Part shown: piece by piece, positions 864 through 9,981 of the stretch
Numbering within the stretch: the stretch's first letter is position 1
Layout of the letters: each line of letters begins with the position of its first letter
Virus record (IMG/VR): IMGVR_UViG_2529293213_000037
Direction: 5' to 3' (one strand)
DNA length: 10,347 nucleotides
Source: a virus
Lineage: Duplodnaviria; Heunggongvirae; Uroviricota; Caudoviricetes
Position numbers and translations under genes: made by a program
The notes under the pieces: model-generated
Databases searched by the model: none
What the model was told of the DNA's origin: nothing
Seen by the model: the letters and a program-made list of their open reading frames with translations, nothing else

Positions 864-920
864 AAAAAGGGCGGCAGAGCAGTTACGGAGTAAAACTGAT
901 ACCGCCAAATGTCACCAGAA
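864..920 (-). ncRNA. dicF: DicF-like small RNA (ftsZ-targeting sRNA of the dicB operon), including its intrinsic terminator
   Basis: The minus-strand sequence AUUCUGGUGACAUUUGGCGGUAUCAGUUUUACUCCGUAACUGCUCUGCCGCCCUUUUUU matches my recollection of DicF with about 3 mismatches. It ends in a GC-rich stem plus U-tract. Ends are approximate (+/- 3 nt). Confidence 0.7.
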
Positions 921-3098: not shown

Positions 3099-3500
3099 TC
3101 ACGCCCGGCGGCTTTTTTGTGCCGCCAGCCACCTAGCAATGGTTTCTTCCATTGATTTTTTCTTGTCTTTGATTTCTTGAAGCATTTTTTCTTGGTCTTC
3201 CTCAGGAAACGCACTAAAAGCTTGGAGCAGTTCGCGTTGGCGAGGACCAATTTTCATCGTGTCAGGGGTGAAAATTTGCTCACACTCTTCAGGAGGCAAT
3301 AAAAACCAATGCAATGGATGCCCTGAAACCTCAACCAGTTTATCCAAACTTGAGGCTTTAGGTGTAGCCTTACCGCTGACCCATTGTTGAACAGTTTGTT
3401 GTGTCACACCAATTCTACGGGCAAGCTCAGCCTGGCTCCATCCAGTTTCCTGAAGAAGCTTGCTGATTCTGTACATAGATACTTCTAGGGCGCTCATCAT
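3099..3500 (-). CDS. XRE-family HTH repressor (DicA/RacR/PaaR-like, 133 aa); probable prophage immunity repressor and regulator of the TA operon
   Basis: N-terminal HTH (QAELARRIGVTQQTVQQWVSG) and a C-terminal domain resembling DicA. Divergent from the Cro-like gene. No Shine-Dalgarno before the ATG, and a TAAAAT -10-like hexamer sits about 7 nt upstream, so it may be leaderless. Confidence 0.8.
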   Translation of the reverse strand: MMSALEVSMYRISKLLQETGWSQAELARRIGVTQQTVQQWVSGKATPKASSLDKLVEVSGHPLHWFLLPPEECEQIFTPDTMKIGPRQRELLQAFSAFPEEDQEKMLQEIKDKKKSMEETIARWLAAQKSRRA

Positions 3501-3608
3501 TATTCAATTTTACAGGTAAATACTGTTAAAAGCATCACAATAAAAAACTGTTGATTGCATACAGTTTTTTATTGTAGGTTTTGCTTATAGTTTTTAGAGG
3601 AGGGCAAA
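3501..3608. promoter_or_regulatory. Divergent promoter/operator region between the repressor and the Cro-like gene; perfect 14-bp inverted repeat at 3538-3574
   Basis: CAATAAAAAACTGT-(9 bp)-ACAGTTTTTTATTG is a perfect palindrome. TATAGT -10-like hexamer at 3586-3591 on the plus strand and TAAAAT on the minus strand. Confidence 0.6.
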
Positions 3609-3881
3609 ATGCTAGATAGCACTCGCGAAAAAATTAGGCAGAAATACACTCAGGCTGAAATAGGTCGTTATATGGGGGTCGCTCAACAGACTGTTTGGCA
3701 ATGGTTTAGCTTTGGCGTTCCCCCAAAGCAGGTAATTCCGTTATGCCAACTAATGAAGTGGGAAGTTACCCCGCATGAAATCCGCCCAGATATTTATCCT
3801 AACCCAACCGACGGTTTACCTGTTGGATGTAAGGTTAACACATCAAATGCGCCGGAGTTGATTCATGAAAATCAAGCATGA
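3609..3881 (+). CDS. ydaS: Cro/CI-type HTH protein, YdaS-like (90 aa)
   Basis: GAGGAGGG Shine-Dalgarno. HTH (QAEIGRYMGVAQQTVWQWF) followed by the WEVTPHEIRPDIYPNPTDG motif typical of the YdaS family. Overlaps the downstream gene by 17 nt. Confidence 0.75.
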   Translation: MLDSTREKIRQKYTQAEIGRYMGVAQQTVWQWFSFGVPPKQVIPLCQLMKWEVTPHEIRPDIYPNPTDGLPVGCKVNTSNAPELIHENQA

Positions 3882-4290
3882 ACACATCCGCATGGCGATG
3901 AATGCCTGGGCGCATCCGGACGGCGAAAAAGTACCGGCTGCGAAAATTACCAAAGCGTATTTCGAGCTGGGAATGACGTTCCCGGAACTGTATGACGACA
4001 GCCATCCGGAAGCCATGGCTCGCAATACTCAGAAAATTTTCCGCTGGGTGGAGAAAGACACTCCTGATGCGGTTAAAAAAATTCAGGCGTTGTTACCAGC
4101 GATCGAAAAAGCGATGCCGCCTCCGCTGGTGGCCCGAATGCGCAGCCACAGTTCCGCTTATTTTCGGGAGTTGGTAGAGACGAAGGAACGGCTGGTGAAA
4201 GATATTGATGATTTCGTTGCATCAGCGATCGTTCTGTTCGATCAGATGAATCGTGGTGGCCCGGCAGGAAACACTCTGGCTGTGCATTAA
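3865..4290 (+). CDS. ydaT: YdaT-like protein (141 aa), the partner of YdaS in Rac-type prophages
   Basis: Starts MKIKHEHI..., with GGAG 7 nt upstream. Co-oriented with and overlapping the ydaS-like gene. Family assignment is from memory. Confidence 0.65.
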   Translation: MKIKHEHIRMAMNAWAHPDGEKVPAAKITKAYFELGMTFPELYDDSHPEAMARNTQKIFRWVEKDTPDAVKKIQALLPAIEKAMPPPLVARMRSHSSAYFRELVETKERLVKDIDDFVASAIVLFDQMNRGGPAGNTLAVH

Positions 4291-4303
4291 TTGGGTAATA
4301 AAT

Positions 4304-4813
4304 ATGAGTAATGACAAAAAATTGACACTGAGCGTTTACGAAAACAGTCCGCACATCTGGCGTGGCGGTTTATCTGATGTGGAGCTGGCAGAGTGGTTGA
4401 TACATAAAGCTAATGCGCTGCTCTGGCGTTTGTCAGCCAGAGAACAGCGCAAGGAAACCAGAATAAAGCTGGCTGATGCAGAAGCGTGTGCCGGGCTTAT
4501 TGAGGATTATACAAATCTTGGTATTTCTTCAGCAGAGAGTGATCCCATTCAGCCTCTGAGCAGGGAGTCAATCCAGCACGCTGGTTGTATGGCACATCTT
4601 GTAACTGCTCGTCAACATGAGGTGGGTATTGGATCACTTCCGGCGGGATATTCGCTGATTCCAGAGCTGGTTGAAGCAAGAAAATCAGTTCAGAAAAAGA
4701 GAGATGACGCACTTCAATTATTGAGAGAGCACTATGGCGCGATACCAGAATGCGAACAGCGTCGATACCCTGAAGGTTATGAATGGATGCAGTCTCTTTT
4801 TGAAGTTCGCTAA
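4304..4813 (+). CDS. Hypothetical phage early protein (169 aa)
   Basis: Long ORF co-oriented with the operon, product MSNDKKLTLSVYENSPHIWRGGLSDVELAEWLIHKANALLWRL.... Weak Shine-Dalgarno. The track places the start at a GTG at 4253 that overlaps the ydaT-like gene; the ATG at 4304 is preferred. Confidence 0.55.
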   Translation: MSNDKKLTLSVYENSPHIWRGGLSDVELAEWLIHKANALLWRLSAREQRKETRIKLADAEACAGLIEDYTNLGISSAESDPIQPLSRESIQHAGCMAHLVTARQHEVGIGSLPAGYSLIPELVEARKSVQKKRDDALQLLREHYGAIPECEQRRYPEGYEWMQSLFEVR

Positions 4814-5030
4814 TCAATATGTCGAGACGAAGGTATGTTTCGGCGCGCAGCCAGGCTCTGTAATCCGGGAGCATTTCGGGGCTGTTACACCAGCGGTTTG
4901 TTGCTGCAACATTTAATACATGAGCCTGATAAAGGCTTTTCAAAAAATACATGTCGAACCTCCTCTGGTTCTGTCGATTGGGAACCACAGATTATATCCG
5001 GAGGAAGGTTCGGCACCAGATGAGGTAGCC

Positions 5031-6122
5031 ATGCGTGATTACGCAAAAGTTTCTCCGCGATTCTGGCTGGGAGAAACGGGGAGAGAACTTAGAAAGGCGG
5101 GTGCAGAAGCGCAAGTTGTTGCTTTTTACCTGATGACATCCCCTCACGCAAATATGCTGGGTTTGTATTACCTGCCAGTTTTATACCTTGCTCATGAAAC
5201 CGGGCTTGGTCTGGAAGGGGCTTCAAAGGGGCTTAAAAGGGCTGTTGAAGCTGGTTTTTGTAGCTATGACCATGATGCAGAGATGGTCTGGGTCCATGAA
5301 ATGGCAGCCTGGCAGGTTGGGGAAACGTTGAAGCCTGGCGATAACCGTTGTGCAGGTGTCAGGAATGAGTATGCATCATTACCTGAAAACGCTTTTCTGT
5401 CAGTGTTTTACGACAGATATAAAACGGATTTCCATCTGGATGTGAGGCGGAATAATAGCCGAAATTCGGTAAGGGGCTTCGAAGGGGCTTTTAAGGGGCT
5501 TCGAAGCCAAGAACAGGAACAGGAGCAGGAGAAAGAACAGGAACAGGACAAAAACACTATGGTTCATGGCAAAAAAAACACCACGAACCAGGCAGGGGAT
5601 GTTCAGACCGTCAATCCTGGTCAGCCAGCAGGCACGACACCGGAAGCCGATTCGGGCGCTGTGCAGCAGGTGATGACCGCAGGGTCGGAGCAATCACACC
5701 AACTGCAGCAGCCTGAAGCCGATTCCGCCATTCAGCGGGAAGCCGATCGGGTAGTCCCGGAAAGCACCGGGCAGTCTGTGGGACGAGTGGATTATCCGGA
5801 TGTGTTCGAACAGGTCTGGCGGGAATACCCGTTGCGTGCTGGGGCAAACCCGAAGAAATCCGCTTTCAGTGCCTGGAAGGCCAGATTGCGCGAGGGGGTG
5901 CCACCAGAGACCATGCTGGATGGTGTGAGGCGTTACGCGAGATACCTGGCGGCGACCGGGAAAGCGGGAACGGAATTTGTTCAGCGAGCGACGACGTTTT
6001 TTGGGCCGGACCGGAATTTTGAAAACCCCTGGTTGCTCCCGGTAAGCGGCACGAACAACCAGCGTTGTGTGAATCATATTTCTGAACCGGATACCGAAAT
6101 TCCGCCGGGATTCAGGGGGTGA
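5031..6122 (+). CDS. Phage replication initiator / replisome organiser (lambda O-like role), containing internal iteron-like repeats
   Basis: ATG at 5031 with GAGGT 4 nt upstream; an in-frame ATG at 4920 without a Shine-Dalgarno is an alternative start. It sits immediately upstream of the DnaC-like loader gene. The internal DNA repeats are translated as GLEGASKGLK and RGFEGAFKGLR, followed by a (QE)n linker. Confidence 0.7.
   Translation: MRDYAKVSPRFWLGETGRELRKAGAEAQVVAFYLMTSPHANMLGLYYLPVLYLAHETGLGLEGASKGLKRAVEAGFCSYDHDAEMVWVHEMAAWQVGETLKPGDNRCAGVRNEYASLPENAFLSVFYDRYKTDFHLDVRRNNSRNSVRGFEGAFKGLRSQEQEQEQEKEQEQDKNTMVHGKKNTTNQAGDVQTVNPGQPAGTTPEADSGAVQQVMTAGSEQSHQLQQPEADSAIQREADRVVPESTGQSVGRVDYPDVFEQVWREYPLRAGANPKKSAFSAWKARLREGVPPETMLDGVRRYARYLAATGKAGTEFVQRATTFFGPDRNFENPWLLPVSGTNNQRCVNHISEPDTEIPPGFRG
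5213..5244. repeat. Iteron-like direct repeats, cluster 1 (AAGGGGCTT-type, 10-bp spacing)
   Basis: AAGGGGCTTC / AAAGGGGCTT / AAAAGGGCTG in tandem inside the replication gene. Confidence 0.45.
5471..5508. repeat. Iteron-like direct repeats, cluster 2: three AAGGGGCTT copies at 11-bp spacing with a palindromic GCTTCGAAGC core; candidate origin
   Basis: AAGGGGCTT at 5471-5479, 5482-5490 and 5493-5501. GCTTCGAAGC is its own reverse complement. Followed by a repeat tract and an A-rich stretch (5550-5580). Confidence 0.55.
5511..5549. repeat. Tandem hexanucleotide repeat (GAACAG-like x6) encoding a QEQEQEQEKEQEQ linker
   Basis: gaacag gaacag gagcag gagaaa gaacag gaacag, seen directly; in frame within the replication gene. 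Confidence 0.8.
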
Positions 6123-6128
6123 TGTGGC

Positions 6129-6875
6129 ATGAAAAACATTGCGGCAGCCGGGGTTCTTGAACGTATTCGCAGACTTGCACCACAGGCGTCGGTTCCACCG
6201 TACCGGACGGTGGAGGAGTGGCGGGAATGGCAACTTGCTGAAGGACGAAAACGCAGCGAGGAGATTAACCGCCAGAATCACCAGTTGCGGGTGGAAAAAA
6301 TCCTGAATCGTTCGGGCATCCAGCCTCTGCACAGCAAATGCTCGTTTGCGAATTATCAGGTGCAGAACGACGGGCAAAAATACGCGCTGAGCCAGGCCAA
6401 ATCCATAGCTGACGAACTGATGACCGGGTGCACGAATTTTGTGTTCAGCGGTAAAACCGGCACCGGGAAAAATCACCTTGCAGCGGCGATGGGTAACCGG
6501 CTGATGGCGAAGGGGCGCAGCGTGATTATCGTCACCGTGTCTGATGTCATGAGCGTGTTGCATGACAGCTACGACAACGGCAAATCCGGGGAAAAATTTT
6601 TACAGGAGCTTTGCAGTGTTGATTTGCTGGTCCTGGATGAAATAGGCGTTCAGCGGGAGACGAAAAACGAGCAGGTGGTATTACACCAGATAATTGATCG
6701 CCGGACAGCATCACTGTGCAGTGTCGGGATGTTAACAAACCTGAATCATGCCGCAATGAGTACACTTCTTGGTGAGAGGATTATGGACCGCATGACCATG
6801 AACGGTGGTCGATGGGTGACGTTTAACTGGGATAGCTGGCGTCCAAATGTCAGCAATATGAGGGTTGTGAAGTAA
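6129..6875 (+). CDS. DnaC-like replicative helicase loader (AAA+ ATPase, 248 aa)
   Basis: Walker A FSGKTGTGKNHLAAA and Walker B LLVLDEIG. Starts 7 nt after the initiator gene stop. The motif resembles E. coli DnaC as I recall it. Confidence 0.85.
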   Translation: MKNIAAAGVLERIRRLAPQASVPPYRTVEEWREWQLAEGRKRSEEINRQNHQLRVEKILNRSGIQPLHSKCSFANYQVQNDGQKYALSQAKSIADELMTGCTNFVFSGKTGTGKNHLAAAMGNRLMAKGRSVIIVTVSDVMSVLHDSYDNGKSGEKFLQELCSVDLLVLDEIGVQRETKNEQVVLHQIIDRRTASLCSVGMLTNLNHAAMSTLLGERIMDRMTMNGGRWVTFNWDSWRPNVSNMRVVK

Positions 6876-9221: not shown

Positions 9222-9825
9222 GCGTTCTCCCCATGAGCATTAAAGGATGCTTAAGATATGCTATGTCACTGATAAAAAATTTGTTGTGTGTGTTTAGTTA
9301 TTTTATCTACCTCCATTATGATTTAAGACTGATATATGTTATCAGCAAAGGTACATCGTTATTATTTTACCTGTCAATACATTTGATATTGATTATCGTT
9401 TACATCGCTTGCTTAGGAAATTGAAGGCAGGTAACTATCATGTCAATGAACTAACCCACAGTCTAACGTACTTCTTTCCCCAATCACCAACAACCAAATT
9501 CCTGTTATCACCACTGGGATTTTGGCGCAACTTCATGGTGCAGAGGTAAATAGCATCAAGCAAAATCTCTTTTTCCGTTGTTGTCCTTATGGGACGTCTG
9601 TCTTTCTGACCGATTTCATATTGGCGAGGTAATGGGAAGTTAAGTAGAATAGCTGCGGGTGCTTGAGGCTATCTGCCTCGGGCATGAACACCAACGGCAG
9701 ATAGAGAAAAGCCCCAGTTAACATTACGCGTCCTGCAAGACGCCTAACATTAATCTGAGGCTCAATCTATGAACGGCAAATCTAGGTTAGCCTCTTACGT
9801 GCCGAAAGGCAAGGAGAAGCAGGCT

Positions 9826-9981
9826 ATGAAGCAGCAAAAGGCGATGTTAATCGCCCTGATCGTCATCTGTTTAACCGTCATAGTGACGGCACTGGTAACG
9901 AGGAAAGACCTCTGCGAGGTACGAGTCCGAACCGGCCAGACGGAGGTCGCTGTCTTCACAGCTTACGAACCTGAGGAGTAA
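9826..9981 (+). CDS. hokD: Hok/Gef-family type I toxin (51 aa), closest to HokD (RelF)
   Basis: Product MKQQKAMLIALIVICLTVIVTALVTRKDLCEVRVRTGQTEVAVFTAYEPEE, about one substitution from HokD as I recall it. AAGGAG upstream. The track ORF (from 9769) is an in-frame N-terminal extension. No relBE-like ORFs upstream. Confidence 0.8.
   Translation: MKQQKAMLIALIVICLTVIVTALVTRKDLCEVRVRTGQTEVAVFTAYEPEE

Follow-up and report, generated by a model that had tools for sequence, protein, structure and literature searches.

Two clusters of a 9 bp word, AAGGGGCTT, lie within the replication initiator gene of a lambdoid prophage, and probably represent initiator-binding iterons that form its origin of replication. 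The best reading of the locus is a lambda-type intragenic iteron origin, with a probability of about 0.75; both the binding and the origin activity are inferred from comparison of sequences. The window, meaning the whole 10,347 nt stretch of DNA that was analysed, is 100% identical to a prophage of E. coli O157:H7, and has an early region of the Rac/lambdoid type. The relevant features, in the order in which they occur, are as follows.

3099-3500, minus strand: HTH repressor of the early region.
3609-3881: YdaS-like cro of the early region.
3865-4290: YdaT-like gene of the early region.
Between the YdaT-like gene and the 363 aa gene, opposite strand: ECs1072-family gene.
5031-6122, plus strand: replication initiator gene, 363 aa, identical in sequence to RefSeq WP_001205823, a 'hypothetical protein'.
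5031-5450, plus strand: N-terminal winged-helix domain (aa 1 to approximately 140), as modelled; the presumed iteron-binding module.
5215-5244, plus strand: iteron cluster 1, exact AAGGGGCTT at 5215 and 5226 and a degenerate third unit.
5471-5501, plus strand: iteron cluster 2, three exact copies of AAGGGGCTT at 11 bp spacing.
5502-5514, plus strand: junction CGAAGCCAAGAAC, in 11 bp register with cluster 2, with a half-site-like AAGCC; nearly invariant in all loci.
5509-5556, plus strand: purine-rich hexamer tract (GARCAR)n encoding (Q/E)n, detected by TRF with period 6.
5551-6122, plus strand: C-terminal module, approximately 92% identical at the nucleotide level to E. coli prophages and phages with unrelated N-terminal halves.
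5560-5590, no strand assigned: imperfect inverted repeat TGGTTCATGG / CCACGAACCA with an A8 loop at 5571-5578.
6129-6875, plus strand: DnaC-like helicase loader (NCBIfam PRK12377, E 1.6e-153; DnaC, E 3e-89; Pfam IstB_IS21).
Downstream of the loader: genes encoding DUF1627 and DUF977 proteins.

All five exact copies of AAGGGGCTT in the window, starting at 5215, 5226, 5471, 5482 and 5493, are on the plus strand and inside the initiator gene. The phasing within each cluster is 11 bp, and the two clusters are approximately 255 bp apart. Base composition predicts 0.045 occurrences per strand, and in 2000 sequences simulated from the window with a second-order Markov model, five or more copies never arose (mean 0.05, maximum 2). 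The initial annotation had recognised the three copies 11 bp apart at 5471-5501, which prove to be exact matches to the word, as well as a looser second cluster at 5213-5244, which resolves into the two exact copies and a degenerate unit, AAGGGCTG, at 5237-5244, with one G missing. In the structural model, cluster 1 codes for aa 62-71, which belong to helix 3 (aa 60-73), the recognition helix of this winged-helix fold; cluster 2 codes for aa 147-157, in a disordered inter-domain linker in which the pLDDT falls below 50 at aa 148-158. The self-complementary core originally proposed does exist, as the palindrome GGCTTCGAAGCC at 5497-5508 (arms 5475-5484 and 5499-5508), but it arises because a CG spacer joins two near-palindromic units of the form AAG-NNN-CTT; the palindrome, or GCTTCGAAGC dyad, is incidental and has no separate conservation.

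The gene start is taken as the ATG at 5031, following the RefSeq annotation of the identical sequence, the ORF finder having listed 4920. The protein matches PHROG 1701 over its full length (E 9e-149), and no Pfam family or specific NCBIfam family was matched. Its C-terminal half matches PHROGs 3729 and 18526, both annotated as replication initiation proteins, and ends in a DnaT-like tail, IPPGFRG (DnaT match, E 0.002); the role of the DnaT-like tail is not clarified in the DnaT paper (PMC13377028). An AlphaFold2 model of the N-terminal domain built with 51 diverse sequences, replacing a shallow-alignment run that gave a pLDDT of 58, has the predicted topology H1-b1-H2-H3-b2-b3, that of a winged helix. 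This domain belongs to a very large group: among 1.84 billion representatives, 4075 relatives were found at E<=0.001, of which 2403 reach E<=1e-10; almost all of the best 150 of the 4075 align from residue 1 of their protein or from close to it. The N-terminal 140-160 residues recur joined to many different C-termini, and megablast matches to the C-terminal module of the window begin at query base 652, corresponding to position 5551. As this recombination junction is directly past the hexamer tract, the N-terminal domain and the sites travel as one module. The DnaC-like protein encoded immediately downstream is presumed to be the partner of the C-terminal domain; of ten diverse lineages, five have a gene for a DnaB-like helicase in the next position and one has a gene for an IstB/DnaC-like ATPase.

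Homologous loci were compared from 48 species-representative genomes and 80 viral contigs, with hosts including the Enterobacteriaceae, Burkholderiales, Acinetobacter (38% GC), Lysobacter (67% GC), Acidobacteriota and Pirellulaceae, amongst others. Most of the 48 species-level genomes have the exact 9-mer at +185/+196 and, within the same gene, at around +430 to +470; in total, approximately 100 distinct homologous genes, from several phyla and spanning 38-67% GC, have the same 9-mer at the same two positions. It is largely confined to these genes, with 118 exact matches in 42.4 kb of initiator gene sequence against 16 in 224.8 kb of flanking sequence, 11 of the latter falling within one truncated gene copy. 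Two phages were scanned for the word, Acinetobacter phage B1251 over its full 45 kb and Shigella phage 75/02 Stx over the first 50 kb of its 60.9 kb; in both, it is found only within the initiator gene or immediately ahead of it. The initial annotation had suggested looking for the absence of the repeats from functional homologues; both of these viable phages have them. Spacing is also strongly maintained, at 11 bp in 209 of 218 adjacent pairs, whilst the 2 bp spacer itself carries little information.

Conservation at the level of codons was assessed in 44 genes, using as background the codons for the same amino acid elsewhere in the domain. Within cluster 1, Gly63 is encoded by GGG in 36 of 36 genes (background 23%), Lys66 by AAG in 38 of 38 (63%), Glu62 by GAA in 33 of 36 (48%), Ala64 by GCT in 29 of 38 (16%) and Leu68 by CTT in 33 of 44 (10.5%). 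Cluster 2 gives the same picture: Lys155 is AAG in all 35 genes (background 63%), Pro156 is CCC in 29 of 31 (19%), and Ser159 is AGC in all 39 (25%). In the junction that follows, which also includes Ser159, Gln160 is CAA in 30 of 37. Other conserved glycine columns have a codon entropy of 1.5-1.8 bits, with GGC the commonest codon. The frozen synonymous sites coincide exactly with the word; judged by this codon usage, selection is acting on the DNA word rather than on the peptide.

These data bear directly on the proposal that the repeats are a by-product of a structurally required peptide, EGASKGL, which is highly conserved at both positions in the enterobacterial homologues. The initial annotation had pointed to such an echo in the protein, and the segments EGASKGLKRA and EGAFKGLRS are indeed present; however, as 11 is not a multiple of three, successive copies of the word are read in three frames, and hence do not constitute a peptide repeat. 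Peptide selection does not explain frozen synonymous positions; cluster 2 is in a disordered segment, the inverted version of the word encodes a different peptide, and one subgroup of homologues replaces the helix 3 peptide altogether. On one contig (L040), a second, truncated copy of the gene upstream of the intact one has lost the gene start, and yet not only keeps the words but has expanded cluster 1 to seven units; the five added units amount to 55 bp, not a multiple of three, and cluster 2 and the hexamer tract are retained. This example is weaker evidence than the others, because the contig derives from a metagenome-assembled genome. Taken together, the frozen codons, the confinement of the word, its spacing, its changes of orientation and the truncated copy exclude a peptide repeat, leaving the by-product explanation barely credible.

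Cluster 2 varies between homologues from one to five copies, in either orientation. It is often inverted (AAGCCCCTT), including in phage 75/02 Stx, in which case the encoded peptide is KPL/SKPL rather than KGL/EGA. Of 101 distinct sequences, 40 have the arrangement ++/-- or ++/---, 31 are ++/++ or ++/+++ and the remainder are mixed or partial. The inverted arrangement offers up to approximately 22 complementary bases, such that the clusters might pair in mRNA or single-stranded DNA to give a long-range helix or cruciform controlling translation or priming. This is very improbable, given that such pairing is destroyed in the 31 sequences with directly oriented clusters, the window included, and in several of the mixed type. 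Furthermore, the spacers between units are complementary from one cluster to the other in only six of 41 loci, all of them self-complementary CG or GC, and there is no covariation outside the 9-mers; the flip from GGGG to CCCC alters the RNA, but not the duplex word; and a search of the region against Rfam gave no match. The peptide-repeat and RNA-helix readings were both rejected on this combination of codon, frame, orientation and spacer evidence.

The iteron reading assigns recognition of the word to the N-terminal domain of the initiator. A different DNA-binding protein, of phage or host origin, might read the sites instead, and one subgroup (L033-L035, L042 and L051) provides an argument for this: cluster 1 has been lost and the N-terminal half of helix 3 is different, but a consensus or near-consensus site persists in cluster 2, with L035 retaining only a degenerate one. 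Either helix 3 residues 62-68 are not specificity determinants, being conserved mainly through the DNA word, or another protein reads the site or recognition otherwise differs from that assumed here. Against a different protein, the N-terminal domain is the only constant companion of the word across phyla, the C-terminal domains, the helicase or loader and the upstream genes all being variable, and a host factor of this specificity shared by Enterobacteria, Acinetobacter, Burkholderiales, Acidobacteriota and Planctomycetota is implausible. Hence recognition by a protein other than the initiator is considered improbable.

Acinetobacter (L023 and phage B1251) and one further locus, L028, have extra sites 12-44 nt ahead of the start codon; those of B1251, at 5611 and 5622 of the phage genome, adjoin the Shine-Dalgarno sequence. 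Autoregulation is frequent among iteron-type initiators, and these upstream sites suggest that in some lineages the same protein-site pair also autoregulates the gene. They could further be taken to mean that the sites are operators only, through which the protein represses or roadblocks its own gene, with the true origin elsewhere. This is unlikely: most lineages, including the window, lack the upstream sites; no other cluster of the word that could act as a separate origin occurs in the phage genome sequence examined; and the position of the repeats at a domain linker, beside a repeat tract and a module junction, matches that of the lambda origin. In any case, autoregulation and origin function are not mutually exclusive.

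Directly after cluster 2, the junction CGAAGCCAAGA continues the 11 bp register and is nearly invariant. It is followed by the hexamer tract, which in the window is (GAACAG)n at 5511-5548/5556 with a purine fraction of 0.85. Across 41 loci, the tract is richer than the N-terminal domain in both purines (0.76 against 0.53) and AT (0.54 against 0.45), and its copy number and length vary among homologues. Gln and Glu codons vary freely within it, so it is composition and periodicity that are conserved, rather than the exact sequence. The tract is a candidate unwinding or flexible region. Both the repeat tract and the A-rich stretch that the initial annotation placed after the iterons are present, the latter as the A8 run. 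This A-rich stretch is neither strongly AT-rich nor conserved in high-GC homologues. Nearest-neighbour stability calculations found the least stable 40-mers in the gene to be only around 1 SD above the window mean, and no marked low-stability or clear AT-rich unwinding element was found in the gene.

On the iteron reading, initiation might proceed in the following manner. The N-terminal domain (aa 1 to approximately 140) would recognise the 9 bp word, as suggested by the strict co-occurrence of the two. With the observed 11 bp spacing, neighbouring protomers would all sit on the same side of the helix, potentially as a short protein filament on each cluster, and the two clusters approximately 255 bp apart could then join in a single nucleoprotein complex resembling the lambda O-some. 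Such a complex would deform the purine-rich tract that adjoins cluster 2, or the DNA flanking that tract; no strong AT-rich element is present. The C-terminal domain, which recombination at around 5551 can exchange, would recruit host DnaB along with the DnaC-like loader from the downstream gene, a step suggested by the gene order and by the lineages with a DnaB-like helicase partner. The putative origin would therefore comprise the two AAGGGGCTT clusters and the adjacent purine-rich hexamer tract. This particular copy of the prophage may be inactive; amplification of the related prophage Sp4 in strain Sakai has been reported to occur solely through regional replication that starts in a neighbouring prophage (PMC2669165).

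The closest analogy is with lambda and the lambda-type Stx phages, such as 933W and P27, in which the repeats bound by the initiator are inside its gene. In the middle of lambda O, four iterons precede a purine-rich tract with an AT content of 74% (PMC7466680). As in lambda O, cluster 2 lies between an N-terminal DNA-binding part and a C-terminal part that recruits the loader (presumed roles here), and is followed by a purine-rich tract on the coding strand; in both types, relatives differ in repeat number and so gain or lose residues. The gene order in Shigella phage 75/02 Stx, namely repressor, cro, cII, initiator homologue, DnaC-like loader and ren, puts the homologue in the position of lambda O. 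The lambda-type analogy drawn in the initial annotation is thus strengthened by gene position, selection at the DNA level, the predicted winged-helix N-terminal domain and the location of cluster 2 in the linker. There are also differences. The putative sites are 9 bp long at 11 bp phasing, in contrast to the 18-19 bp palindromic iterons approximately 20-24 bp apart in lambda; the tract of the window is only around 50-56% AT; the loader is DnaC-like, rather than lambda P; and cluster 1, approximately 255 bp upstream in the coding region of the DNA-binding domain, is additional to the lambda arrangement. No homology to lambda O was detected, with Pfam Phage_rep_O giving no match at E<=1 and hhalign of the family profile against lambda O returning an E value of 0.58 and a probability of 0.1%.

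The initiator and loader genes of the window have collinear homologues, gp15 and gp16, in Shigella phage 75/02 Stx, the type phage of the Eru4 replication unit, although Eru types are formally defined by the genes adjoining cI, which differ in the window. Across both genes, 91% of the 2 kb query aligns with 79% nucleotide identity (73% at the amino acid level). Cluster 2 consists of three direct copies in the window, but two inverted copies in 75/02 Stx. Eru4 is reported to be common among European Stx1 phages (PMC8951638). Fagerlund et al. 2022 (PMC8951638) give neither a function nor a described domain for its first protein, and mention no origin or repeats; iterons or origins are not mentioned in the Eru papers. 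A search of the literature on organizer and iteron origins found nothing describing this initiator family, and no binding or replication experiment was reported for any family member in the literature searched; full-text searches for AAGGGGCTT and AAGCCCCTT returned unrelated primers and sequences only. A plasmid collection searched for a replicon dependent on the initiator gene yielded nothing informative, the hits being prophage-bearing chromosome fragments or large plasmids.

Phage replisome organizers of the Phage_rep_org_N type resemble the window in having intragenic repeats and a modular protein. SPP1 G38P, with oriL inside gene 38, and the lactococcal phage organizers have origin repeats in the organizer gene and a modular protein. 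There is no match between Pfam Phage_rep_org_N (PF09681) and aa 1-160 at E<=1, and PHROG 6251, 'replisome organizer DnaA-like', matches only at E 1.5e-4. One E. coli prophage variant, L003, combines an N-terminal domain of the Phage_rep_org_N type with the same C-terminal module as the window. Its repeat word is a different one, GTCACG, with seven exact copies that are confined to that gene. They form two clusters separated by 260 bp and phased at 10-11 bp, after which comes a simple-repeat linker; hhalign aligns only the C-terminal module of L003 with that of the window. This parallel hints that the two-cluster geometry is general. The iteron origins of theta plasmids (RepA, pi and TrfA) share with the window a winged-helix initiator, direct repeats and possible autoregulation. 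Plasmid iterons are 17-22 bp long, approximately two helical turns apart and outside the rep gene, whereas the units in the window are 9 bp, one turn apart and inside the gene, and the N-terminal domain matches no Pfam family.

An iteron origin inside an initiator gene is a classical kind of element. What is new is that a putative lambda-like origin is served by an unrelated winged-helix domain missing from Pfam and NCBIfam, with a word conserved across phyla. A function, as initiator and origin, can thereby be proposed for the Eru4 protein listed as being of unknown function in the Stx phage literature, and the same assignment extends to a very large family in the prophages of many phyla that is absent from both databases. 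An iteron conserved letter for letter in hosts of 38%-67% GC, partly within recognition-helix codons, would be a natural case of overlapping constraints on protein and DNA. The word could mark phage origins and help to classify replication modules; as the sites are short, known and can be recoded synonymously, the putative origin is directly testable.

A broader and decidedly more tentative proposal is that the locus represents a portable origin cassette, essentially unchanged across phyla, comprising the winged-helix domain (at least 2400 clusters at 50% identity) and the 9 bp iteron, with one iteron cluster in the codons of the recognition helix, a two-cluster looped or wrapped initiation complex and an architecture that is a general rule for organizer origins. 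Were this doubtful generalisation true, the recognition-helix codons would carry an iteron cluster, such that the protein and its site constrain one another's evolution, and the fixed distance of approximately 255 bp between clusters would build the looped or wrapped complex. The same geometry in the unrelated family to which L003 belongs, with its GTCACG word, would then point to an undescribed architectural rule for phage 'organizer' origins.

A scan for promoters and terminators across 4700-6200 gave results at the level expected by chance. The imperfect inverted repeat at 5560-5590 is part of the exchangeable C-terminal module and was not found outside enterobacteria. Amongst its enterobacterial variants are one compensatory exchange, of T-A to C-G, and one repair, of A.C to A-T.

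The junction CGAAGCCAAGAAC that follows cluster 2 (window 5502-5514) is the most invariant DNA of the region across phyla, with the Ser159 codon that lies within it being AGC in 39 of 39 cases, and itself constitutes less than a full copy of the iteron word. Further 3' lies a structure that resembles a terminator on the minus strand:

window 5560-5590: inverted repeat, TGGTTCATGG-(A8 loop)-CCACGAACCA

In enterobacterial variants of this repeat, a T-A pair is replaced by C-G through compensatory exchange, and an A.C pairing is repaired to A-T.

In a subgroup of the homologous initiator genes (L033-L035, L042 and L051), cluster 1 has been lost (gene nt 160-240) and the N-terminal half of helix 3 differs from that of the other homologues; a consensus or near-consensus cluster 2 site is kept (gene nt 440-480), this being merely degenerate in L035. 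This pattern is relevant to the question of which residues read the word. An E. coli O145 prophage (L003:2142-2450, NZ_CP031345) encodes an initiator that shares the C-terminal module of the window's protein and has an unrelated N-domain. This gene contains its own repeat, GTCACG, the seven exact copies of which are confined to it, along with the variants GTCACA and GTCATG. The GTCACG copies form two clusters with 260 bp between them, phased at 10-11 bp and followed by (ACAGATAAAGAT)n; in this two-cluster layout the gene matches the window.

A second, truncated copy of the initiator region, lacking the gene start, is found in a Burkholderiales MAG contig (L040:865-1400). Its cluster 1 is composed of seven tandem AAGGGGCTT units, a gain of five units that adds 55 bp, which is not a multiple of three; cluster 2 has one unit on the plus strand and three on the minus strand, and the hexamer tract is long. 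This could represent an origin-only copy or, given that the contig is from a MAG, an assembly artefact.

In Acinetobacter phage YMC/09/02/B1251, two additional inverted sites (5611-5630) lie immediately 5' of the initiator gene's Shine-Dalgarno sequence, a position which suggests autoregulation through these putative sites.

B1251 5649-6542: initiator gene, given in RefSeq as 5916-6542

The start of the RefSeq CDS seems to be placed 267 nt downstream of the true one, leaving out the winged-helix N-terminus.

The final 24 or so residues of the window's initiator (aa 340-363, window 6050-6122; …PDTEIPPGFRG) are similar to the extreme C-terminus of the primosomal protein DnaT (NCBIfam, E 0.002; PDB 6aep, E 0.019). 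This IPxGFRG tail is retained in homologues that otherwise have different C-terminal domains, and could act as a peptide that docks to the DnaB-DnaC complex.

Elsewhere in the window, a long plus-strand ORF overlaps a long minus-strand ORF (4253-4988), each with a match to a curated family, one of which probably rests on a shadow ORF; the tandem repeats that lie between the repressor gene and the divergently transcribed cro-like gene are probably operator sites, and both RNA matches exceed the Rfam gathering score.

4253-4813, plus strand: ORF, PHROG 8304 (E 6e-120)
4497-4988, minus strand: ORF, NCBIfam 'ECs1072 family' (E 3e-30)
3555-3595, intergenic: 13-bp tandem repeat TTGCTTATAGTTT, 3.2 copies
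869-920, minus strand: DicF antisense RNA
9657-9831, plus strand: sok antitoxin RNA (hok/sok-type module)
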